A stretch of 64,000 nucleotides of DNA from Clostridia bacterium (GCA_017403065.1 JAFQOT010000006.1:33865-97864), one strand, 5' to 3'. Positions 47,198 to 58,417 are shown, counted from the first letter of the stretch. The notes: generated by a model not told the origin, from the letters alone. Made by a program: numbers and translations.

Positions 47198-47559
47198 TTG
47201 TTACCTCCCAGTTGTTCGATTTGTTTGGATATTTCTCCAAGAGAATACCCTATGTCATACATTCTTTTTAAGTAAGTAAGGGTTAATTCCTCAGCATATT
47301 TTTGCTTATAAAAATTTATCAAAGAAGTATCGTGGGTTATAAATTTACCGTTGGTGCGCTCGGTAAAAACAAGTCCCGATTCCTCTAATTCAACAAGCGC
47401 TTTTTGCATAGTGTTAGGATTAACCTTAGTTTCATTGGCAAAATCCCTAACCGACGGTAAACGTTCTCCAGGCTTAAATTTGCCCGCTACAATGTCGGTT
47501 TTGATTTGTTCCACAATTTGAATGTATATGGGTATGTTATTATTAAAGTCAAATTTCAT
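47194..47559 (-). CDS. GntR-family (YtrA-subfamily) transcriptional regulator
   Basis: Short 121-aa GntR wHTH (LPSVRDFANETKVNPNTMQKAL); first gene of the GntR-ATPase-permease operon. Confidence 0.88.
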   Translation of the reverse strand: MKFDFNNNIPIYIQIVEQIKTDIVAGKFKPGERLPSVRDFANETKVNPNTMQKALVELEESGLVFTERTNGKFITHDTSLINFYKQKYAEELTLTYLKRMYDIGYSLGEISKQIEQLGGNK

Positions 47560-47573
47560 ACAAACCTCCTTAC

Positions 47574-47622
47574 TGTATTACTAAACTAATACAATAATAC
47601 ACCGCAATAACGCCTTTGTCAA
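47574..47622 (-). promoter_or_regulatory. promoter plus palindromic operator of the ytrA-like operon
   Basis: Minus strand TTGACA (47617-47622), 17 nt, TATTAT (47594-47599), then inverted repeat TGTATTA-N6-TAATACA (47574-47593). Confidence 0.55.
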
Positions 47623-47633
47623 GAAAAATTAAA

Positions 47634-47663
47634 ATAGAGCGACATTTTGTCGCTCTATTTTTG
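47634..47663. terminator. bidirectional terminator
   Basis: atagagcgac / gtcgctctat stem flanked by an A-run and a T-run. Confidence 0.7.
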
Positions 47664-47730
47664 TTGAAAGGGTTATGTAAATTTTATGTTTCTCTAATTT
47701 TTTCTATGTGTTCGAACCCGGACATATTTA

Positions 47731-47898
47731 GTGATATTGTGCCTTTGGCACAGTGATATTTTTATTCCATAAAAGTGATATTTCTGCTAACGCAGAAGTG
47801 ATATTATATTCGCCATTAAAACTCGCGAAGCGAATATCACTTGGACGAAGTCCAAATATAACTGCGAAGCAATATAACTCGCCAAAGGCGAATATAAC
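47731..47898. repeat. array of about 8 mini-hairpins, each flanked by a conserved heptamer (GTGATAT / its complement ATATCAC / variant ATATAAC)
   Basis: GTGATATT at 47731, 47753, 47775, 47798. ATATCAC at 47834; ATATAAC at 47856, 47872, 47892. Short variable stems with 3-4-nt loops lie between them. Confidence 0.85.
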
Positions 47899-47900
47899 TA

Positions 47901-47932
47901 AAAAAGACGATTGCTTTCGCAATCGTCTTTTT
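47901..47932. terminator. bidirectional terminator-like hairpin
   Basis: aaaaagacgattgc-tttc-gcaatcgtcttttt perfect stem with flanking A/T runs. Confidence 0.7.
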
Positions 47933-48074
47933 CTTTGAAAGGGATTTTGTCTCGGTGCTGCCGCGCCTATCGCCTCGCTCGCGCTCGTTGCCACGTCGGC
48001 GAAAACAACCATTTAGGTTCTTTTCTTCCGCTTCGCTCCCTCCTTGTTCGAATCCCTTTCTCCATATAAAAATT

Positions 48075-48108
48075 AAAAAGGAACCAATCCTTTGGACTGA
48101 TTCCTTTT
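48075..48108 (-). terminator. rho-independent terminator immediately after tRNA-Arg
   Basis: Minus strand GGAATCAGTCC-AAA-GGATTGGTTCC followed by TTTTTAATTTTT. Confidence 0.7.
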
Positions 48109-48112
48109 TAAT

Positions 48113-48189
48113 TGGCACGCTGAAAGGGATTCGAACCCCCGACCCTCTGCTTAGAAGGCAGATGCTCTATCCAACTGAGCTATCAGCGC
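48113..48189 (-). tRNA. tRNA-Arg (anticodon UCU), CCA encoded
   Basis: Hand-folded cloverleaf: acceptor GCGCTGA/TCAGCGT, D-arm GCTC-AGTTGGATA-GAGC, anticodon loop CT-TCT-AA, T-arm GGGGG-TTCGAAT-CCCTT, discriminator G, CCA. Confidence 0.9.
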
Positions 48190-48249
48190 ATACGCTTTAT
48201 CTTAAAGCAAAAGTGATTATATCACACAACCAAAAAATAATCAAGTGTT

Positions 48250-49167
48250 TTATTTTATTTTTTCTATATCATAAGGGGTTGTCTGATAAACGAAATAGTT
48301 AAGCCAGTTAGAGTAGAGTAAATTTGCGTGGGAACGCCACGTAACAATGGGTTTTTTGTCCGCATTGTCTTGGGGAAAATAATTTTTAGGCATTTCAATA
48401 GGCTTATTTGCCTTTAAGTCTCTAAAATATTCGTTAGCTAAGGTTTCACCGTCATACTCGGAATGGCCCGTGATGAAAATCTGCTTTCCGTTTTTGGTAG
48501 AAACGGCATATACACCCGCTTCTTTGGAGCTTGCTAAAATTTTAAGTCCTTTAACCTTTTTTATATCCTCTTCTAAAACGGTAGTGTGCCTTGAATGAGG
48601 CACCATAAATTCATCATCAAAGCCGCGGAACAGTATGGAATTTTTATAGTCCACTCTGTGAGGAAATACCCCGAACATTTTCTTAGAAAGAGGCTTTTTA
48701 TCAATACCAAAGTGGTAATAAAGCCCAGCCTGCGCCCCCCAGCAAATATGAAAGGTGGAATGTACGTGGGTTTTGGTCCACTCCATAATTTCGCAAAGCT
48801 CTTCCCAATACTCCACCTCTTCAAAGGGCATATTTTCTACTGGTGCGCCTGTGATAATCATACCGTCAAAGGTGCGGTCCTTAACCTCGTCAAAGGTTTT
48901 GTAAAAGGTAAACAAATGCTCGGCAGAGGTGTTTTTTGATATGTGACTTTTTGTGTGAATAAATTCTAAATCCACCTGCAAGGGCGAATTGCCCAAAAGT
49001 CTTGAAATCTGGGTTTCGGTTTCAATTTTTTTGGGCATAAGATTAAGCATTAAAATTTTTAGAGGACGAATATCCTGTGTTATGGCTCTGGTTTCGGTCA
49101 TAACAAAGATATTTTCGTCATTTAATGTTTTTACCGCAGGTAAATCGTTTGGAATTTTAATAGGCAT
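48250..49167 (-). CDS. metA: homoserine O-acyltransferase (MetA family)
   Basis: N-terminus [11 protein letters not shown]...LNLMP and ~305-aa length are typical of MetA; active-site Cys context [10 protein letters not shown]. Confidence 0.9.
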
Positions 49168-49191
49168 TAGTCTATACCATTCCTTTTTAAA

Positions 49192-50475
49192 TTAAATATT
49201 GTCTAAAGCTTGCTTTATATCTGCAATTAAATCCTCGGCATCCTCAATACCGCAGGAAAAACGTATCAAATCAGGAGAAATGCCTGCCGCTGTAAGCTCA
49301 TCGTCATTCATCTGACGGTGGGTAGCGCTTGCAGGGTGCAAGCAGCAAGAACGGGCATCTGCAACGTGGGTTTCAATAGCTGTAATTTTAAGACCCTTCA
49401 TAAAGGCTTCTGCGCTTTTTCTGCCGCCCTTAACGCCGAAGCTTACTACACCGCAGCTTCCGTTAGGCAAATATTTCTGGGCAAGGGCATACTCACTGTC
49501 ACCCTCAAGACCTGGGTAGGTAACCCACTCTATTCTATCGTCTTGCTGTAATGCCTTTGCCACAGCCAAACCGTTTTCGCAGTGCTTTTTCATTCTTACG
49601 TGCAGACTTTCAAGTCCGAGATTGATATAAAAAGCGTTCTGTGGTGACTGAATAGAGCCAAAATCTCGCATAAGCTGAGCAGTAGCCTTAGTAATATAAG
49701 CACCCTCAAGCCCGAATCTTTCTGTGTAGGTAACACCGTGATAGCTTTCATCAGGAGTGCAAAGGCCAGGGAACTTATCTGGATACTTTGTCCAGTCGAA
49801 TTTTCCCGAATCTACAATACATCCGCCTACAGAAACACCGTGACCGTCAATATATTTAGTGGTAGAATGGGTAACAATATCCGCTCCCCATTCAAACGGT
49901 CTGCAGTTTACAGGGGTTGCAAAGGTATTATCTATAATAAGAGGAACCCCGTGGTCGTGGGCAGCCTTTGCAAATCTTTCAATATCCAACACCTTTAAGG
50001 CGGGGTTTGCAATAGTTTCGCCGAAAACAGCCTTTGTGTTTTCCTTAAAAGCGGCATTTAATTCCTCGTCGGAGCAGTCGGGTGAAACAAAGGTAAAATC
50101 GATGCCCATACGCTTCATTGTAACTGCAAAGAGGTTATATGTTCCGCCGTAAATTGCCGAAGAAGCAACAATATGGTCTCCACAAGAGGCAATGTTAAAA
50201 ACAGAATAAAAAGATGCTGCCTGACCCGATGAGGTGAGCATTGCGGCAGTACCGCCCTCAAGCTCGCAGATTTTTGCTGCAACTGTGTCGTTTGTAGGGT
50301 TTTGAAGACGTGTATAAAAATATCCGCTTGCTTCTAAATCAAAAAGCTTGCCCATATCCTCGCTTGTTGCATATTTAAAGGTGGTTGACTGAATAATTGG
50401 TACCTGACGAGGCTCGCCGTTACCTGCTGTGTAACCGCCCTGTACACATTTTGTGCCGATTTTTAAGTCTTTCAT
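49192..50475 (-). CDS. metY: O-acetylhomoserine sulfhydrylase (PLP-dependent, Cys/Met metabolism family)
   Basis: PLP-lysine context HSTTKYIDGHG; ~427 aa. Confidence 0.88.
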   Translation of the reverse strand: MKDLKIGTKCVQGGYTAGNGEPRQVPIIQSTTFKYATSEDMGKLFDLEASGYFYTRLQNPTNDTVAAKICELEGGTAAMLTSSGQAASFYSVFNIASCGDHIVASSAIYGGTYNLFAVTMKRMGIDFTFVSPDCSDEELNAAFKENTKAVFGETIANPALKVLDIERFAKAAHDHGVPLIIDNTFATPVNCRPFEWGADIVTHSTTKYIDGHGVSVGGCIVDSGKFDWTKYPDKFPGLCTPDESYHGVTYTERFGLEGAYITKATAQLMRDFGSIQSPQNAFYINLGLESLHVRMKKHCENGLAVAKALQQDDRIEWVTYPGLEGDSEYALAQKYLPNGSCGVVSFGVKGGRKSAEAFMKGLKITAIETHVADARSCCLHPASATHRQMNDDELTAAGISPDLIRFSCGIEDAEDLIADIKQALDNI

Positions 50476-50481
50476 ATTATA

Positions 50482-51288
50482 TCACTCCAAATTAAATACT
50501 CTTTTTGCGTTCATATTTAGTATACACTTAATTTCCCATTCGTCAAGCCCAAGCGACAAAAAATATTCCATTTCGCTCTTACTGTCCCACATAGGATAAT
50601 CGGTGCCAAAAAGAACCTTATCTGCGCCGTATTTACGTATAATTTCTTTAGCCGTTTCAGGCTTGAGGGAATAAAAGCTTGATGAGCAGTCAACATAAAA
50701 ATTTTTTATGCCCTTGTATTCATCTACAGCCGTTTCCCAGAGCGACCATCCGCCCAAATGGGCGCCGATAACGGTTAAATTTGTGTAAATATCCAAAATT
50801 GGCAATAATCTGTTAGGGTTTGAATAGTCGTATCGGATATCCCCCGTGTGCATTAAAACAGGAAGCCCTTTTTCTTCGCAAAGCTCATAAATTTTAAGGC
50901 ATCGCCAGTCATCAATCTTAAAGGCTTGTATATCGGGGTGAAGCTTTACACCTTTAAGCCCTAAGGACAAAAGATGCTCTATATCCCCCTTTATATCCTG
51001 ACTGTCAGGATGCAAAGTGCCCAAACCCACTAATTTTTCAGGGTTTGCGGCAACCTCGTTGGCAATAAATTCATTTATACTTTGCACCTGTTTTGGAGTA
51101 GTAGCAACCGACTGAACAATAAATTTGTCAATCCCTGCTTCTTCGCCCCTTTTTAAAAGATCTTCTACCGTACCGCTTCCAACTGAATGGGTAGAATAAA
51201 AATTATCGGTACCCATTACTGCCTTTTGTGCTATTTTTTCAGGATAAATATGGCAGTGGGCATCTATAGCGTAAATTCCGTTTATCAT
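50482..51288 (-). CDS. metal-dependent TIM-barrel hydrolase (Amidohydrolase_2-like)
   Basis: IDAHCHIYP N-terminal HxH, later KLHP, MHTG, GAHLG, FGTDYP ligand contexts. Confidence 0.8.
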   Translation of the reverse strand: MINGIYAIDAHCHIYPEKIAQKAVMGTDNFYSTHSVGSGTVEDLLKRGEEAGIDKFIVQSVATTPKQVQSINEFIANEVAANPEKLVGLGTLHPDSQDIKGDIEHLLSLGLKGVKLHPDIQAFKIDDWRCLKIYELCEEKGLPVLMHTGDIRYDYSNPNRLLPILDIYTNLTVIGAHLGGWSLWETAVDEYKGIKNFYVDCSSSFYSLKPETAKEIIRKYGADKVLFGTDYPMWDSKSEMEYFLSLGLDEWEIKCILNMNAKRVFNLE

Positions 51289-53780
51289 ACTAAGCCTAAT
51301 CTCTTTGCTGCGTCCTCGCGCATTTTGTATTTCAATATTTTTCCTGCCGCATTCATAGGGAATTTGTCCACAAATTCTATATAACGGGGCACCTTGTGTC
51401 TTGCCATATGGTCGGCAATGTAGGTGCGCATTTCCTCCTGTGTCATATTCTCGCCCTCTTTAAGTATAATGCAAGCCATTATTTCCTCGCCATATTGCTT
51501 ATCGGGTACACCTATAACCTGAACATCCCTTACCTTGTCACAGGTGTATATAAATTCCTCTATCTCTTTTGGATAAATATTTTCGCCGCCGCGAATTATC
51601 ATATCCTTAAGACGACCTGTAATTTTGTAGTTTCCGTCATCATCCTTGCAAGCAAGGTCGCCTGTGTGAAGCCATCCGTCCTGGTCGATAGCCTCAGCAG
51701 TAGCGTAGGGCATTTTATAGTAGCCCTTCATTATATTATACCCCCGCGCAACAAACTCGCCGTTTTCTCCGTTTTTACACTCCTCGTTTGTTTCGGGATT
51801 AACCACCTTGCACTCTACATTTGCAAAGGCGCTGCCTACAGTTTCGGTACGCACCTCAAGAGAGTCGTAATAACTGCTCATAGTACATCCTGGAGATGCC
51901 TCGGTCTGACCGTAAACCGACACAATTTCTCTCATATTCATATCAACTGTAGCTCGCTTCATAAGGTCGGCAGGACAGTTAGCCCCTGCCATAATTCCCA
52001 CGCGCATATATGAAAAGTCGGTTTTTGCAAAATCAGGATGATTCATCATAGCTATAAACATTGTAGGCACACCGTTAAAGGCGGTAATGCGCTCAGAATT
52101 TATACAAGCTAAGGATGATTTTGCCGAAAAATAGGGCATAGGGCACATTGTAGCGCCGTGTGTCATAGAAGACGTCATAGAAAGCACCATTCCAAAGCAA
52201 TGAAACATAGGAACCTGTATCATCATTCGGTCTGCGGTGGACAATTCCATATGGTCGCCTATATATTTACCGTTGTTAACTACGTTATAGTGGGTTAGCA
52301 TAACACCCTTTGGAAAGCCTGTAGTACCTGAGGTGTACTGCATATTGCATACATCGTCCTTATCAACCAAGGCTGCCATACGGTGAACCTCAGAAACAGG
52401 CACCTGTGATGCCCTTTCTAAAGCCTTGCTCCAGGTTAAACACCCTTTTTGGCTGTAGCCTACGGTAATAACATTTCTCAGAAAGGGCAAACGCTTGCTG
52501 TGTAAAGGCTTGCCCTCTTTTGTAGCTTCAAGCTCTGGGCATAATTGGGCTACAATTTCACCGTAATTGCAGTCCCGTGCTCCCTCGGTCATAATAAGGG
52601 TATGGGTATCAGACTGCTTTAAAAGATACTCAATTTCGTGAATTTTGTAGGCGGTATTAACCGTTACCAAAACTGCGCCTATTTTTACAGTTGCCCAAAA
52701 GGCGATATACCACTGAGGAACGTTTGTTGCCCATACCGCAACATGAGTTCCCGCCTTTACCCCCAAGGAAATCAGCGCGCGGGCAAAATTGTCAACATCG
52801 TCCCTGAATTCGCTATAGGTTCTTGTGTAATCAAGAGTAGTATATTTAAAGGCGTATTGGTCGGGAAATTCTTCAACCATACGGTCAAGCACCTGAGAAA
52901 AGGTGCAATCAATAAGTCGGTCCTTCTCCCATACGTACTTGCCTGTATGAGCGCGGTTATAATAAAGGGAATTATCACTTTTAGAGGTGTCGCTGTATTG
53001 CTTCATATAATTTATGAATTGAGCAAAAATAATCTCCATATCCTTTAATTCCTGACACCACTCAGGGTCCCATTCAAGAGATATAAAACCGTCATAATTC
53101 ACCGAGCTAAGACCCAGCATCATATCCCCGATAGGCATTTCGCCCTCGCCAATAAGGCAAAATTCAGCGCCGTTTTCAGTCTTTACAGCATCCTTAATAT
53201 GCACGTGCTTAATATAAGCCCCTAAATTTTTAATAGTGGCTTCAGGGTCCTCGTCATTTAAGAAATATGGGGGATACATATCCCACAAGGCAGCTACATT
53301 GTCGTGAGCAAAGCTATCCAACAGATTTCTCAAGTTTGAGGTGTTGGAATAAATTCCTGTAGTTTCTATTAAAAGGGTTACGTTTTTCTCCTCTGCCTGA
53401 GGTAAAACCTTAGAAATAACCTCTTTCATCATTTCGTTTTTCTCTTGGGTATATTCGCCCCCTGTAGCCCTGATTCTGATATTAGGAATATGCAGCTTTG
53501 CCGCAATTTCTATGCAGGAAGAAATTTCATCAATATCGCAGGTGTTTTTATCTATAGGGTTGCAAACCGTATCAAGACAGGGAAGCTCAAGCCTTTTTTC
53601 ATAAAGCTTTCTTACCGTTGCGTTTGCTTTATAATCGTAAAAAGCCCCGTCTTTATCTGTAAACAAGGGATTATGTATGTCGTGTATTTCAATTCCCTTA
53701 AATTTTAAATCCTCGGCAATATCACAAAAATCCCAAAAGGTGCTGTTTACCCAACCCTTTGTGGAAAAAGATAATTTCAT
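51285..53780 (-). CDS. fusion protein: xylose-isomerase-like TIM barrel (aa ~1-270) plus AMP-forming adenylating enzyme / acyl-CoA-synthetase-like (aa ~290-831)
   Basis: N-terminus KGIEIH...LLIETTG...VHIKD...ISLEWDPEW. C-terminal AMP-binding motifs YTSGTTGFPKGVMLTH, GYYK, TGDLA, RLKDMIIRGGENIYP. Confidence 0.85.
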   Translation of the reverse strand: MKLSFSTKGWVNSTFWDFCDIAEDLKFKGIEIHDIHNPLFTDKDGAFYDYKANATVRKLYEKRLELPCLDTVCNPIDKNTCDIDEISSCIEIAAKLHIPNIRIRATGGEYTQEKNEMMKEVISKVLPQAEEKNVTLLIETTGIYSNTSNLRNLLDSFAHDNVAALWDMYPPYFLNDEDPEATIKNLGAYIKHVHIKDAVKTENGAEFCLIGEGEMPIGDMMLGLSSVNYDGFISLEWDPEWCQELKDMEIIFAQFINYMKQYSDTSKSDNSLYYNRAHTGKYVWEKDRLIDCTFSQVLDRMVEEFPDQYAFKYTTLDYTRTYSEFRDDVDNFARALISLGVKAGTHVAVWATNVPQWYIAFWATVKIGAVLVTVNTAYKIHEIEYLLKQSDTHTLIMTEGARDCNYGEIVAQLCPELEATKEGKPLHSKRLPFLRNVITVGYSQKGCLTWSKALERASQVPVSEVHRMAALVDKDDVCNMQYTSGTTGFPKGVMLTHYNVVNNGKYIGDHMELSTADRMMIQVPMFHCFGMVLSMTSSMTHGATMCPMPYFSAKSSLACINSERITAFNGVPTMFIAMMNHPDFAKTDFSYMRVGIMAGANCPADLMKRATVDMNMREIVSVYGQTEASPGCTMSSYYDSLEVRTETVGSAFANVECKVVNPETNEECKNGENGEFVARGYNIMKGYYKMPYATAEAIDQDGWLHTGDLACKDDDGNYKITGRLKDMIIRGGENIYPKEIEEFIYTCDKVRDVQVIGVPDKQYGEEIMACIILKEGENMTQEEMRTYIADHMARHKVPRYIEFVDKFPMNAAGKILKYKMREDAAKRLGLV

Positions 53781-55159
53781 TAGTTTGCCTCCTCGTAGAC
53801 AATTTTGTTAATAGCGCCTATATAAGCCTTTATGCTTGCGCCTATAATATCGGTGGAAATACCGTTACCTGAATACACCTTTCCGCCGCTTCTCAGCTTA
53901 ACAAGAGCCGAGCCCAAAGCCTGCTTACCCTCGGTTACCGACTGAATCTGGAAATCATCCAGCTCGTAATGGTGTCCGATAATCTGCTCAATAGCTAAGA
54001 AAGCTGCGTCAATAGGTCCGTCGCCTATACTTACCCCCTGTATATTCAAACCGTCCTTTTCAAGTGTAATCTGAGCGGTGGCTGAAATAATATTACCATT
54101 ATTTATCAAATAATTTACAAGCTTGTATGTTGGCGGTACCTGTAAAGCCACGCTAGCTACAATAGCGTCTAATTCCTTAGAACCAACGCTTTTCTTTTCG
54201 GCAACGCGTAAAAATTCCTCGTAAACCTTTTGGCTGTCCTCTTCAGAAAGGTCGTAGCCCAGCTTCATTACTGCGGCAGCTACTGTATCCTTATCGTCAT
54301 TGACACCTAAGGCTATACCGCTGTCAAAAGAAGCAACACTACAGGCTGATTTTTCATTTTTTGCGTTAGAAATAATCCAGCTTATCTGGTTTATAATGCG
54401 GTTAAGCTCGGTGTATTTGATGTCAGAATTAAAACCGTTTATATCACCGCAGTTTTTAATAATTCCTGTTATTGTTTCAAGGGGTATCCCCTCGCCCTTA
54501 ACGTCGGTCTTTATAACCGAAACGCCCTTTTCTAAAGCCATAACTGCATTAGCTGCGGCAAGTCCGTTTTTATTGCTGCACATAACACCGTATTCTACAT
54601 TGTCGCTATCCTTTACATTGGCTGCGGCAAATTCACCAAAAGCCTGAGGCATCATCTCTGCGGCAGAATCGCAAATAGTTACAGCCGTAGCGCCGGCTTT
54701 TACTGCGGTAGAAACAATACTTTCTAAAACATCCTTTTCGGCTCTTGCGGCATCAACCGCGCAAAATTCAACATCATTTATTTTTGATTTTGCCGCCTTT
54801 ATAAGCTTTTCAACAAGCAGCTCCATCTTGTCTGCCTTTTTGTGACAGGTATACTCCATTCCCACGGTAGATACGGGAAGCTCTATTCTGAGCCTTGGCT
54901 TTTTAGTGGTCTGTAAGGCTGCGGCAGCCGCCTCAACGCTCTGCTCGGTCATTCCTGCATTTACCGAAATTACAGTATTTTTAATAAAAGATGCCATAGT
55001 TTTAATCAACAAGGTATCGGTTTTAACATTTGCCATAGCAGGTAATTCTATAACGTCTACCTGAAGCTTATCAAGCTGACGGGCAATTTCAATTTTCTCT
55101 TTAAAGCTAAAAGCGTTTTCTTCTTTGCATAAAGTTCTGTCTGCAATTTTGATTTTCAT
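53780..55159 (-). CDS. LeuA-like protein with degenerate catalytic barrel and intact C-terminal LeuA-dimer/regulatory domain
   Basis: HMGL-like fold, but DRTLCKEEN replaces DTTLRDGEQ and MCSNKNG replaces HxHNDxG. C-terminus ...SGNGISTDIIGASIKAYIGAINK matches the LeuA allosteric domain. Confidence 0.75.
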   Translation of the reverse strand: MKIKIADRTLCKEENAFSFKEKIEIARQLDKLQVDVIELPAMANVKTDTLLIKTMASFIKNTVISVNAGMTEQSVEAAAAALQTTKKPRLRIELPVSTVGMEYTCHKKADKMELLVEKLIKAAKSKINDVEFCAVDAARAEKDVLESIVSTAVKAGATAVTICDSAAEMMPQAFGEFAAANVKDSDNVEYGVMCSNKNGLAAANAVMALEKGVSVIKTDVKGEGIPLETITGIIKNCGDINGFNSDIKYTELNRIINQISWIISNAKNEKSACSVASFDSGIALGVNDDKDTVAAAVMKLGYDLSEEDSQKVYEEFLRVAEKKSVGSKELDAIVASVALQVPPTYKLVNYLINNGNIISATAQITLEKDGLNIQGVSIGDGPIDAAFLAIEQIIGHHYELDDFQIQSVTEGKQALGSALVKLRSGGKVYSGNGISTDIIGASIKAYIGAINKIVYEEAN

Positions 55160-55200
55160 AATTTTCGCTCCTTGATAAAGTCTTATGCAATATAGATAAT

Positions 55201-55462
55201 AAAAAATCCCTGAGACTGCTATATTGCAATCTCAGGGACGAATAATATTCGCGGTACCACCCTGATTACCATAAAAGGTCACTCTACGAGCTCTAACAAG
55301 CTCTTTGTCGTGATAACGGGACAAACCGTAACAGCTTACTTTGTTTCAGCCGTTCTGCTCGGGAATGAGACTTGACACCTTGCACCGCCGCCGACTTGCA
55401 CCAACCGTCAGCTCTCTGAATTTTAGTAACAAAGGCAATAATTCCTTCAACGCATTTATACC
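55201..55462 (-). promoter_or_regulatory. T-box riboswitch leader, probable Leu (CUC) specifier
   Basis: Minus strand: K-turn-like TGCGTTGA...CGAGCA, AGAGAG bulge, GGTTGGTGCAA distal loop, T-box AATCAGGGTGGTACCGCG (55250-55267), terminator 55201-55238 with a T6 run. Confidence 0.9.
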
Positions 55463-55467
55463 TCATC

Positions 55468-55496
55468 ATTATAATACAAGCAAAAAACTTTGTCAA
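55468..55496 (-). promoter_or_regulatory. consensus sigma-A promoter driving the T-box operon
   Basis: Minus strand TTGACA (55491-55496), 17-nt spacer, TATAAT (55468-55473). Confidence 0.7.
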
Positions 55497-55513
55497 GTAT
55501 TTTCTAAAATATT

Positions 55514-55546
55514 AAAGAGGTAAGCTTTTTAAAGCCTACCTCTTTT
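55514..55546 (-). terminator. rho-independent terminator after the oxidoreductase operon
   Basis: aagaggtaggc...gcttacctctt hairpin followed by TTTAATATTTT on the minus strand. Confidence 0.7.
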
Positions 55547-55548
55547 TC

Positions 55549-56541
55549 TTACTTATTGCAACATTTTGTAATAAGCTTATGAAGCCGCAGCTCGTAATCC
55601 GGAGTATACGGATTGGTTTTTTCGCCAGCCACCATTTGAGCAAAGCTTGCAAGCATCGAATCGAAACGATAGTTAGGCTCACACTCGCTGATAATTGATT
55701 GATCGCGCCATTGCTCGCTGAAATATTCTCTTACCCTTGTAGTCTGTGAATCAGGCAGTCCTATCTCAAGAGGGTTTACCTCAACTGTTCCTTTAGAACC
55801 TGTGATTACAAGCTGTCTTCTCTCAAATCCACCTCGTTCTACACCTGAGGTTTTAGCAAAGGATACACCGTTTTTATACCTTAAAGCTACCATGCCCTGA
55901 TCTATATTATGTATCCCGTCGAAGCCTGTTGACGCGCTAAGATTGATAATTTCCTCAGGTTCACCTTGTATTTGATAAATCAAATCTATTAAATGACAAC
56001 CTAGAAAATAAAGCATACCACTTGGGAAGGTGGAAAGCCACTGACGAAGCTCAGGCTTTTGCCAACAGCTCATCTGTGCCTCAACGCTTTGTATTTCACC
56101 GTACTTACCCTCTTTTACGTCCTTAAGCACCTGCATTACACTAGGGTTATATCTATACATATATCCCGTATGAAAAACAAGGTTTTTGGCTTTTACGGTT
56201 TCTATCATTTCCTCAAAGAGAGTGTGGTCTAAGCCGCCCGGCTTTTCCATATGAATGTGCTTTCCTGCCTTAGCGGCAAGCAAAGCATATTTTGTAAGAT
56301 AAATTTCTTCTGTTTCTATAATAACAGCTTCTATTTCTTTATTATTTAAAATTTCCTCAACCGTCATTTCGCGACATTCAGCAAAGGCTTCTACCAAATC
56401 GGGAAATTTTTCCTTTTCGTTTTCAGGAAAAGCACAGCCCACCATTTCAAAAATGTGACTTTGACGCTTAATGCTAGCAAAAATAGGATTACCGTGACTG
56501 TTCTTACTTGTCCCTATTTGCGCTATTTTTATTTTACCCAT
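55549..56541 (-). CDS. Gfo/Idh/MocA-family oxidoreductase
   Basis: N-terminal Rossmann IKIAQIGTS, EKP motif (HMEKPGG). The ATG at 56541 follows GGGAGA and overlaps the upstream stop (TAATG); the ORF track extends to 56556. Confidence 0.85.
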   Translation of the reverse strand: MGKIKIAQIGTSKNSHGNPIFASIKRQSHIFEMVGCAFPENEKEKFPDLVEAFAECREMTVEEILNNKEIEAVIIETEEIYLTKYALLAAKAGKHIHMEKPGGLDHTLFEEMIETVKAKNLVFHTGYMYRYNPSVMQVLKDVKEGKYGEIQSVEAQMSCWQKPELRQWLSTFPSGMLYFLGCHLIDLIYQIQGEPEEIINLSASTGFDGIHNIDQGMVALRYKNGVSFAKTSGVERGGFERRQLVITGSKGTVEVNPLEIGLPDSQTTRVREYFSEQWRDQSIISECEPNYRFDSMLASFAQMVAGEKTNPYTPDYELRLHKLITKCCNK

Positions 56542-57560
56542 TAAAATTTCTCCCAATTAAACTGAACAACAGGAAATGCAGGCTCTTCGACAAGACGTTT
56601 ATACACCTGAGGTGCCTCATCGGGTGTATGAATCTCTTCAACAAGCGAAGCAAACTCGATTCTACCGCAGCTTACCATTTTTTGAATTGCGTACATATCG
56701 TCCTTTAAGGTCCACCATCCGTTAGAGGATTCCTCGTTAGGACGGGCGCAGGTATGAGCGCCAACAAGGGTAATGCCCGGTCCGTGAACCTTTTTGTAAT
56801 AATCTATAGTAAAATCAGAATTACGGGTACAACCTAAAAGAGCCACACGGCCGTATCTTGCCATACAGTCTAATACAGAATCCAAAGCCTTGCCGTTACC
56901 TGTAACCTCAATAGCAACATTAACGCCGCCATTTGTCACACCGCGTACCTGCTCTTCAAAATCCTCGATAAAAGGGTCAAAGGCATAATCTGCGCCTAAT
57001 TTTAAAGCTAACTCCCGCTTTTCAGGAATAGGATCTACAGCAATAATTGGGGAGGCTGCTGCCGCGCGTAAAAGTTTGATTGCCATTATTCCCAATATTC
57101 CCATACCCATTACGATAGCAGACTCGCCCATTTCAAAGCGGCATTTTCTGATTGCTGCAAGGGGAAATGTCGCTATATGCCACAACGCGGCTTCGCTGAA
57201 GCTTATAGACTCATCCTCAATTTTGAAAATATTTTTTTCTTCCATTAACACATAATTTCTGTGTTGAGTCCAAGCCATAGCCACTCTGTCGCCTGGCTTT
57301 ACTGATGTAACCCCTTCGCCTACCTCTACAACTACACCGGATGTGCTATATCCAGATATTCTTGGGTATGTAGCCGTTGTATCTGTATGTCGCTTAGGGC
57401 TTATACTAACACCGCCCATAAGATTAGCGCGCTCAGTTCCGCTGCTTATCGTCGATGACATAACCCTAACCAAAACTTTTCCCGCAGTTGTTTCGGGACA
57501 TTTTCCTTCTACAACCTCTACCACCTTAGGAGCATTGAACATTATTGATTTTCTATTCAT
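56541..57560 (-). CDS. zinc-type medium-chain alcohol/polyol dehydrogenase
   Basis: MDR fold with GxGxxG-like GMGILG and GroES-like N-terminal domain. Confidence 0.8.
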   Translation of the reverse strand: MNRKSIMFNAPKVVEVVEGKCPETTAGKVLVRVMSSTISSGTERANLMGGVSISPKRHTDTTATYPRISGYSTSGVVVEVGEGVTSVKPGDRVAMAWTQHRNYVLMEEKNIFKIEDESISFSEAALWHIATFPLAAIRKCRFEMGESAIVMGMGILGIMAIKLLRAAAASPIIAVDPIPEKRELALKLGADYAFDPFIEDFEEQVRGVTNGGVNVAIEVTGNGKALDSVLDCMARYGRVALLGCTRNSDFTIDYYKKVHGPGITLVGAHTCARPNEESSNGWWTLKDDMYAIQKMVSCGRIEFASLVEEIHTPDEAPQVYKRLVEEPAFPVVQFNWEKF

Positions 57561-57664
57561 TAAAACTCACCTCATTTTTTATTATACATCTTGTTTTTCC
57601 TTTTTAAATATGCTATTCTATAAAAAAAGAGGTAAATTTATCCTTGTTTTCGGAGGTTTTTTAG

Positions 57665-58417
57665 ATGAATGATGTAATTTTCTCAAATAGCTTTGTTTTT
57701 AACCGATGCGAAAGAAGCAAATACTCTTATACCGATTGCACAAAAGGTAGCTGTAAGCACTATTTTGCATATATGCACAAGGGTACTGCAAAAATTGTTT
57801 CTGATAAAACCACTATATATATCAAAGAGGGGGATGTTTTTTATATTCCAAATAAATGTAGCTATAAATCCTACTGGTATGGTGAAGACGCTATCATATT
57901 TGATTCCTTAGGCTTTAAATATATGCCTAATTTCGATGAAAACGGCTTTGTTCTGCAGTCAATCTCCTCAACCAAAGAGGAAATAGATTTAATAGAAAAG
58001 CTTGTTTTGCGTAAACCTATTGACTATGAAGCTGTGGCTGATTTTTACCGTTTAGTATCCCTTTTAGCGCCTAAAATGAAAAAGGACGAAAAAAGCTACG
58101 CTGAACATGTTATAAAAACGATAAAAAAAGAGATTTACTTTGATTGCCACGCAAAAATATCCCATATTGCAAAAAAATGTAATATAAGTGAGTCGGTAAT
58201 CTACGCAACCTTCAAAAAGTACGCCAACATAACCCCCAACGAATTCAGACAGAAGGTTTTAATAGAAAAAGCTAACGAAATTCTTATAACCACCGATAAG
58301 TCTATCGAGGAAATCAGTCAAGCACTTCAATTCAGCTCAAGCTCTTACTTTAGGAAAATATTTAAAAAATACACAGGAACAACACCTAAAGCAGTGCGTA
58401 AAAAAACTATACTTTAA
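57665..58417 (+). CDS. AraC-family transcriptional regulator
   Basis: C-terminal AraC HTH (ISESVIYATFKKYANITPNEFRQKVLIEKANEIL ... SSYFRKIFKKYTG). Confidence 0.88.
   Translation: MNDVIFSNSFVFNRCERSKYSYTDCTKGSCKHYFAYMHKGTAKIVSDKTTIYIKEGDVFYIPNKCSYKSYWYGEDAIIFDSLGFKYMPNFDENGFVLQSISSTKEEIDLIEKLVLRKPIDYEAVADFYRLVSLLAPKMKKDEKSYAEHVIKTIKKEIYFDCHAKISHIAKKCNISESVIYATFKKYANITPNEFRQKVLIEKANEILITTDKSIEEISQALQFSSSSYFRKIFKKYTGTTPKAVRKKTIL

Follow-up and report, generated by a model that had tools for sequence, protein, structure and literature searches.

A Leucine T-Box Module of a LeuA Paralog and a TIM-Barrel/Acyl-CoA Synthetase Fusion in Clostridia

In a stretch of 64,000 nucleotides (nt) from a Clostridia bacterium (GCA_017403065.1 JAFQOT010000006.1:33865-97864), which at its full length is called the window here, an operon of five genes was located on the minus strand at positions 48,250-55,496. 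It is headed by a T-box leader with a leucine specifier, and comparison with related loci identified the conserved regulated unit as LeuAx-Fus(-Amh) and not as all five genes. LeuAx stands for a LeuA paralog, Fus for a fusion of a TIM barrel with an acyl-CoA synthetase, and Amh for an Amidohydro_2 enzyme that accompanies them in most, though not all, loci. This trio is a widespread uncharacterised module within a leucine T-box regulon, and the genes metY and metA that follow it in the window are a clade-specific add-on. We propose that LeuAx-Fus(-Amh) provides the leucine-specific entry into the isovalerate carboxylation route, a reading whose chances we judge to be about even.

A preliminary description of this DNA had reported a consensus promoter and a complete T-box leader in front of five tightly coupled genes. 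The promoter was found again at the positions described and is the sole 12/12 match in the 8.5 kb scanned (47500-56000), the leader matches the full length of the Rfam model, and five minus-strand open reading frames are present. By their coordinates, LeuAx and Fus overlap by 1 nt and Fus and Amh by 4 nt, and 6 nt separate Amh from metY and 24 nt metY from metA, in agreement with the earlier description. The leader and the three conserved genes comprise the following features.

55468-55496, minus strand: sigma-70-type promoter, TTGACA-17-TATAAT (12/12 match)
55231-55459, minus strand: T-box leader (Rfam RF00230)
55367-55369, minus strand: specifier codon CUC (Leu), followed by A55366 (Rfam alignment and sequence)
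55250-55264, minus strand: conserved T-box sequence AGGGUGGUACCGCG (from the sequence; motif invariant across loci)
55206-55239, minus strand: intrinsic terminator of the leader, 14-bp stem and T-run (sequence scan)
53780-55159, minus strand: LeuAx, 459 amino acids (Pfam HMGL-like 7.6e-31, LeuA_dimer 2.9e-30)
51285-53780, minus strand: Fus, 831 amino acids (AP_endonuc_2, AMP-binding and AMP-binding_C)
52990-53780, minus strand: N-terminal domain of Fus, xylose-isomerase-like TIM barrel, residues about 1-263 (Pfam AP_endonuc_2, PF01261, 6.2e-24)
51285-52928, minus strand: C-terminal domain of Fus, AMP-forming acyl-CoA synthetase, PRK12583-like (AMP-binding 2e-92, AMP-binding_C 2.8e-17)
50482-51288, minus strand: Amh, 268 amino acids, metal-dependent enzyme (Pfam PF04909 3.8e-31)

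Leucine specificity of the T-box leader

The leader scores 109.1 bits with RF00230, whose gathering score is 93, at E=3.4e-23 and covers model positions 1-219 of 219, and the leaders of related loci reach 105-116 bits with the same model. The preliminary description had left the amino acid open between leucine, methionine and cysteine, and comparison of the specifiers now leads to leucine. Among 53 distinct aligned leaders, the specifier column reads CUC in 50 and CUG in two. The sole outlier, L042, is a truncation artefact, and its sequence reads AGTCTCA. Two further T-boxes with a variant motif (L057 and L058) were added by Rfam, so that with these and L042 counted, the specifier is CUC in 53 and CUG in two of 55 related leaders. 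The base after the specifier is less uniform, being A in 33, G in 17 and C in three of the 53 aligned leaders. Since the flanks of the specifier vary and the codon changes are only synonymous, this is the pattern expected of a leucine specifier. A T-box specific for methionine or cysteine was dropped because the codon is CUC or CUG everywhere.

By motif search, the T-box was found directly 5' of LeuAx in 57 of the 73 loci with enough upstream sequence, L057 and L058 coming in addition to this count. A second T-box within ±7 kb was not found in any locus; the one found directly precedes LeuAx. The UGGU of the T-box sequence lies at 55259-55256 and would, by the established T-box rule, pair with a tRNA 3' end ACCA, that is, with discriminator A73. 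The 5' arm of the terminator (55239-55206) overlaps the 3' end of the match to the T-box model, as is expected for alternative terminator and antiterminator folds.

Taken by these features, the leader of the window is an ordinary leucine T-box. With the leucine T-boxes of Firmicutes, such as those of leuS and the ilv-leu operon of Bacillus subtilis (RF00230), it shares the full architecture above the gathering score, a CUC followed by a purine, a UGGU fitting A73 and a terminator right behind the T-box sequence. The difference lies in the genes under control, which are leuS, ilv-leu or a transporter in Firmicutes, whereas here an uncharacterised trio and the clade-specific metY-metA are found.

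About one fifth of the loci have no T-box before LeuAx (for example L067:5288-5600 and L078:5200-5610). In some of these T-box-less loci (L030, L034), LeuAx comes directly after ilvE; others have an AT-rich promoter region and a gene for a helix-turn-helix (HTH)-cupin protein within the operon, which suggests protein-based instead of tRNA-based control in these lineages.

The conserved unit and its three proteins

For the comparison, 80 species-level loci encoding the fusion protein were collected. A genome scan for Fus matched at least 599 stretches in species-level genomes, all of them metagenome-assembled genomes (MAGs) of Clostridia. Most carriers belong to the Acutalibacteraceae, Oscillospiraceae and Ruminococcaceae and come from the guts of ruminants and humans (Oscillospirales MAGs), and a profile search for cultured organisms with the fusion yielded MAG fragments for the most part. 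In all 71 loci that show both genes, LeuAx lies next to Fus, with a median gap of 1 nt and junctions that are mostly 4-nt overlaps or 1-5-nt gaps. Amh follows Fus in 44 loci (median gap 0) and is missing from many loci that keep LeuAx-Fus. The statement of the preliminary description that the first three genes belong to no known pathway still holds, as no NCBIfam model reaches its cut-off for any of them and a literature search found no published description of the trio, returning background on MbcS and the isovalerate pathway only.

Judged from its alignment with LeuA of Escherichia coli (b0074), LeuAx is a catalytically dead LeuA paralog that has kept a leucine-type regulatory domain. LeuAx has other residues in place of R13, D14, E16, Q17, H106, H202, H204 and the GERAGN motif, and its subdomain I is shorter by a deletion of about 29 residues, which agrees with the earlier naming of a 'dead' paralog. 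Within the LeuAx family, the equivalent of R13 is C, R, K, S, L or T and that of H202 is E, K, Q, R, L or S; these catalytic-equivalent positions are unconserved, and the site has degenerated and has not been re-tooled. Every LeuA equivalog of NCBIfam scores far below its cut-off, the best with 263 bits against 532. Structural motifs of the barrel are kept (D7, T9, P95, S97, DATR, D164 and C194), and the regulatory domain has GxGPxDA, the G457/A460/G462 trio and GxGxSTDI (GxGxxTD) in common with E. coli LeuA. The mean pairwise identity within the family is 66% in the regulatory domain and 42% in the barrel.

A Foldseek search with an AlphaFold2 (AF2) model of LeuAx (predicted local distance difference test, pLDDT, 81.7) matched LeuA structures including full-length leucine-bound LeuA of Mycobacterium tuberculosis, and the regulatory domain alone as query gave no sequence match in the PDB. 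LeuAx thus has the TIM barrel and C-terminal regulatory domain of LeuA (E. coli b0074; M. tuberculosis 1sr9 and 3fig), but it differs from these enzymes, in which the metal and substrate ligands R13, D14, H202 and H204 are intact, by the loss of these residues, and it never lies beside leuB. In sources, the protein is named 'hypothetical', 'alpha-isopropylmalate synthase regulatory domain-containing protein' or, wrongly and in at least one source, '2-isopropylmalate synthase'. On the strength of the conserved domain and the gene coupling, LeuAx is probably a leucine-sensing subunit giving feedback control of Fus. A dead paralog kept as the amino-acid-sensing subunit of a pathway-entry enzyme is known from the HisZ-HisG(S) ATP-phosphoribosyltransferase, which offers a conceptual parallel to the putative LeuAx-Fus pairing, although the protein families differ.

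Pfam domains also confirmed the TIM-barrel/adenylase fusion and the Amidohydrolase_2 enzyme of the preliminary description. In the ligase half of Fus, the motifs TSGTTGFPKG and GWLHTGD and the C-terminal GK with the catalytic lysine are invariant in 73 sequences, and identity exceeds 80% across more than 100 protein clusters. The best curated family is PRK12583 with 663 bits, under its NCBIfam cut-off of 832, and the best solved relative (E=1.7e-76) covers part of the domain and is not a close structure. Sources name the protein 'AMP-binding protein'.

The TIM domain gave profile matches to the isomerase Art22 and the dehydratase AsbF (E=8e-11). A literature search on Art22, the top match, brought up unrelated papers only. 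Its AF2 model (pLDDT 80.6) reached template modelling (TM) scores of 0.75-0.78 with Art22, UlaE, AsbF and DgpB-C at 13-19% identity, and these structural relatives are remote and functionally mixed, comprising isomerases, the epimerase UlaE, dehydratases and the C-glycoside (C-C) lyase DgpB-C. Ten polar residues are invariant (E31, H33, C68, D70, R102, E139, H192, H194, D197 and E212), an AsbF-like HxHxK(D/N) motif is present, and R102 is aligned with R102 of AsbF. At the Glu-Asp-His-Glu positions of the metal site, the window protein has E139, D167, H192/H194 and E236; of these canonical ligand positions, 167 is D in 47 and N in 21 of the 73 sequences, and 236 is E in 44 and V in 25.

Amh has H11, H13, K115, H117, H147, H177 and D230 invariant in 45 sequences, and its metal-ligand set (HxH, further His residues and the strand-8 Asp) is complete. 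Among solved structures, 3irs and 3cjp, both uncharacterised, come closest, and decarboxylases of the ACMSD/LigW type follow. Both the TIM barrel of Fus and Amh look catalytically competent. A role of Amh as a TatD-type aminoacyl-tRNA deacylase was dropped because the TatD match is only sub-threshold.

Fused TIM-ligase homologues were detected down to about 32% identity. One locus shows the two domains as separate genes in swapped order (L087:2-1156), where a TIM-barrel gene of 268 amino acids, 32% identical to the TIM domain of Fus, lies 13 nt behind a gene whose end resembles the Fus ligase (66% identity in the last 105 residues). With the exception of L087, the contigs with stand-alone TIM homologues are too short to give a genomic context. 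For the distant fused homologues L091 and L092, the available sequence starts at the Fus gene, so that an upstream LeuAx or T-box would lie outside the view. In L092 (161-4825), the Fus homologue (TIM domain 32% identical) is followed by a protein that consists of a 2-oxoacid_dh acyltransferase domain only and then by a MetA/HTS homologue; in L031, a 2-oxoacid_dh-domain protein and a second AMP-binding enzyme come after Amh. The 2-oxoacid_dh-domain proteins of L092 and L031 are possible acyl-transfer partners.

Leucine-pathway neighbours and the proposed role

To describe the neighbourhood, all open reading frames of the 80 loci were clustered and representatives were scanned against profiles. 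Recurrent neighbours are VorB (NF005507, 551 bits against a cut-off of 399) together with the beta and gamma subunits of the 2-oxoacid:ferredoxin oxidoreductase, IlvE (NF009897, 506 bits against 307), a 2x[4Fe-4S] ferredoxin (Fd) of 68 amino acids, a P-loop protein without a good family match, and an MbcS-like acyl-CoA synthetase that is often fused to or preceded by an HTH-cupin module. Where each flank measures 6.5 kb or more (31 loci), the oxidoreductase is present in 22. Six loci of one lineage (L067, L068, L070, L071, L076 and L080) have a single tight operon LeuAx-Fus-IlvE-P-loop-Fd-VorB-VorA-VorC-HTHcupin-MbcS. In another five (L063, L064, L066, L073 and L074), LeuAx-Fus(-Amh) stands behind a leucine T-box and the synthetase and vor genes come next, and in L057 and L058 the leucine T-box operon runs on into a pyruvate:ferredoxin oxidoreductase (PFOR) of 1179-1193 amino acids (TIGR02176, 1694 bits).

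The MbcS-like synthetase occurs in some species fused to N-terminal HTH_3 and Cupin_2 domains (756 amino acids; L074:10700-12970) and elsewhere in a split form with an HTH-cupin regulator of 182 and a synthetase of 559 amino acids (L067:13890-16151). The two may form a ligand-sensing regulator/enzyme pair for branched acids. The P-loop protein (220-231 amino acids; L074:13033-13916 and L067:10601-11296) has weak CbiA/ParA-type matches and always precedes the 68-residue ferredoxin and VorB; it could serve the oxidoreductase as an accessory protein or in its maturation. Neither leuB nor a canonical leuA was found in the window or near any locus, and a place of the trio in the isopropylmalate pathway was dropped for this reason. 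An HMG-CoA/mevalonate-derived route to isovaleryl-CoA was also dropped, as no supporting genes were found.

A route from isovalerate to leucine was shown physiologically in rumen bacteria (Allison 1962, 1966, as cited in PMC7356843). The loci described here match it in habitat, in leucine-responsive regulation and in synteny with a ferredoxin-dependent branched 2-oxoacid oxidoreductase and ilvE. It has been defined physiologically, and the passages found on it in the literature assign no dead LeuA, TIM fusion or amidohydrolase to it. MbcS of Staphylococcus aureus, an AMP-forming synthetase by which external branched short acids enter metabolism, activates 2-methylbutyrate and isobutyrate and is poor on isovalerate (PMC10026030). 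This leaves room for a separate, leucine-regulated isovalerate ligase, for which the C-terminal half of Fus is proposed. MbcS-like genes flank vor in related loci, and the Fus ligase differs from this neighbour by an identity of only about 25%, by its relation to the PRK12583 group and by the extra TIM barrel.

In the proposed mechanism, uncharged tRNA-Leu would stabilise the antiterminator so that the operon is transcribed, a step that is well supported. The ligase domain of Fus would then form the CoA ester of isovalerate or of a branched acid close to it, and a Vor-type oxidoreductase would carboxylate the acyl-CoA reductively, with reduced ferredoxin and CO2, to 4-methyl-2-oxopentanoate, if flux runs in this direction. 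Transamination by IlvE would yield leucine. LeuAx, coupled translationally to Fus and possibly in complex with it, would sense leucine and exert feedback control, and preparation or salvage of the acid substrate may fall to the TIM barrel and Amh. More tentatively, and with somewhat less than even confidence, LeuAx as an allosteric leucine sensor of Fus could, together with Amh, make up the entry step so far missing at the gene level, placed under T-box as well as feedback control.

Branched short-chain acids are growth factors for fibre-degrading Clostridia of rumen and gut, and the isovalerate-to-leucine route has long been known in physiological terms only. A leucine-regulated gene module, if the proposal is true, would give a genetic handle on this cross-feeding, and many gut and rumen Clostridia annotated with a '2-isopropylmalate synthase' would make leucine from a cross-fed fermentation acid. 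As this label on a dead LeuA can mimic prototrophy by the wrong pathway, its recognition would correct predictions of auxotrophy. LeuAx would then be a further dead enzyme paralog reused as a metabolite sensor, and in no fewer than 599 species-level genomes leucine supply would be linked to the chemistry of a TIM barrel and Amh.

Several points weigh against an isovalerate entry module. The substrate of the Fus ligase cannot be read from the sequence, because the best NCBIfam model stays under its cut-off and no close solved structure is available. Leucine binding by LeuAx and a LeuAx-Fus complex are deduced from conservation and gene coupling. Ligation of isovalerate to CoA calls for no TIM barrel and no amidohydrolase, and still invariant polar or metal-binding residues are found in both; the association of TIM barrel and ligase is old. 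No vor or ilvE genes were found within the 64-kb window, and the same is true of the window's clade. The PFOR of L057 and L058 could be a housekeeping enzyme.

The proposed mechanism leaves the need for a TIM barrel and an amidohydrolase unexplained, which makes the conversion of another precursor to the ligase's acid the main rival. The module would also serve leucine supply in this case, but TIM barrel and Amh would act on a compound other than free isovalerate, for instance a hydroxy- or keto-acid, a lactone or an amide conjugate with the leucine carbon skeleton. We consider this possible, though on the unlikely side. It would account for the ten invariant polar residues of the TIM barrel, with the AsbF-like motif and the aligned R102, for the complete metal-ligand set of Amh, for an ancient TIM-ligase pairing that also occurs as two adjacent genes, and for the presence of Amh alongside Fus in at least 44 loci. 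It would also mirror the logic of petrobactin synthesis, where the product of AsbF (3-dehydroshikimate dehydratase) is adenylated by AsbC and both act on the same carboxylic acid. AsbF and AsbC combine a xylose-isomerase-like TIM barrel and an ANL adenylating enzyme as Fus does, but they are two distinct proteins that act on an aromatic substrate in siderophore synthesis, and AsbF is about 19% identical to the TIM domain of Fus. However, the comparisons give no candidate substrate, as the nearest structures belong to mixed enzyme classes at 13-19% identity; two canonical metal-ligand positions of the TIM domain vary (N replaces D167 in 21 and V replaces E236 in 25 of the 73 sequences), and many loci have LeuAx-Fus without Amh.

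Alternatively, the module might make isovaleryl-CoA primers for iso-branched membrane fatty acids. Rumen bacteria put branched acids into lipids, and the module contains an acyl-CoA synthetase of the right general kind. Such a role is played by MbcS in S. aureus (PMC10026030). A leucine T-box, however, answers to uncharged tRNA-Leu, so that the selected output would be the supply of leucyl-tRNA; the dead LeuA retains a leucine-type regulatory domain, and the linkage is to ilvE and oxidoreductase genes and not to fab genes. A function in lipid priming is thus improbable.

The preliminary description had itself proposed that all five genes form one pathway, gated by tRNA charging, which makes or consumes an intermediate of homoserine or homocysteine metabolism. 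The features that bear on this are as follows.

49192-50475, minus strand: metY, O-acetylhomoserine sulfhydrylase, 427 amino acids (TIGR01326, 563 bits, cut-off 495)
48250-49167, minus strand: metA, homoserine O-acetyltransferase, 305 amino acids (MetA_acetyl NF047918, 508 bits, cut-off 460.5)
50519-50546, minus strand: candidate internal promoter TTGACG-16-TATACT inside the 3' end of Amh (10/12 match)

One T-box precedes all five tightly spaced genes in the window, five related species show the same arrangement, and the distant Fus homologue L092 has a MetA homologue two genes downstream. The assignments of MetY and MetA from the preliminary description were upheld, as both exceed curated NCBIfam cut-offs; by these scores they are ordinary enzymes, which speaks against a special pathway. 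Conservation of the triad together with metY/metA, which had been put forward as a check, was found in five of 75 species-level loci (L007, L008, L009, L015 and L035) plus the window, so that metY-metA are absent behind the trio in about 90% of them; the genes that recur beside the trio are vor, ilvE and MbcS-like ones. L007, L008, L009 and L015 group with the window in a neighbour-joining tree of Fus, in which L035 branches elsewhere; L010 lies within the window's clade yet is without metY. With a T-box that is specific for leucine everywhere, a link of the trio to homoserine/homocysteine chemistry is not supported, and we now regard it as quite improbable.

Independent transcription of metY-metA from an internal promoter had also been named as a point that would speak against the five-gene pathway, and a candidate motif was found before metY, at the level of sequence. 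A TTGAC(G)-16-TATACT motif lies within the last 65 nt of Amh, and all six metY-linked loci agree in its position and spacing. In the 39 Amh genes that have no metY behind them, no match of this quality occurs at the site (L041 comes nearest with a 9/12 match 3 nt away), and the motif thus precedes metY only where metY is present. This suggests that metY-metA have their own promoter, although shared ancestry of the six loci could account for part of the conservation. In the proposed model, metY-metA stand outside the leucine module. In L035 (9488-12507), Amh, MetY and MetA are like those of the window clade (74-85% identity) and Fus is placed with other lineages; the 3' half of this operon may have been exchanged between lineages.

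It is highly improbable that LeuAx instead partners a genuine LeuA, for example in a heterodimer that modulates the isopropylmalate pathway, with the adjacency to Fus being incidental: LeuA enzymes are dimers with paired regulatory domains and LeuAx retains the domain through which they pair, but LeuAx lies beside Fus in each of the 71 loci that show both, mostly overlapping or at most 5 nt apart, and there is no leuA or leuB near any locus.

Signals and genes around the operon

The remaining signals at the borders of the operon are the following.

55545-55514, minus strand: terminator hairpin ending the upstream operon; the operon promoter comes directly after it
48113-48189, minus strand: tRNA-Arg(TCT) (Rfam-level match), 60 nt past the metA stop codon
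48071-48113, minus strand: first strong terminator downstream of the operon (sequence scan)

At Rfam gathering thresholds, neither an S-box nor any other riboswitch was found in the 64-kb window, and only the T-box and tRNA pass. The missing S-box of the preliminary description was thereby corroborated, as no SAM riboswitch reaches the threshold and the gap before metY measures 6 nt. The view that the operon has no internal signals needs a qualification: the 10/12 promoter-like site at 50546-50519 lies just upstream of metY.

A sequence scan found no terminator between the metA stop codon and the gene for tRNA-Arg(TCT), so that transcripts of the operon may continue into the tRNA gene. The tRNA gene also has a promoter-like site of its own at 48244-48216.

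Comparison of the window with L001-L004 identified a strain-level indel at 55549-58417, just upstream of the T-box promoter. A block of AraC, zinc-dependent alcohol dehydrogenase (ADH) and GFO_IDH_MocA genes is present there in the window, L001 and L004 and is missing from L002 and L003, in which a GH28 gene abuts the T-box leader in its place.

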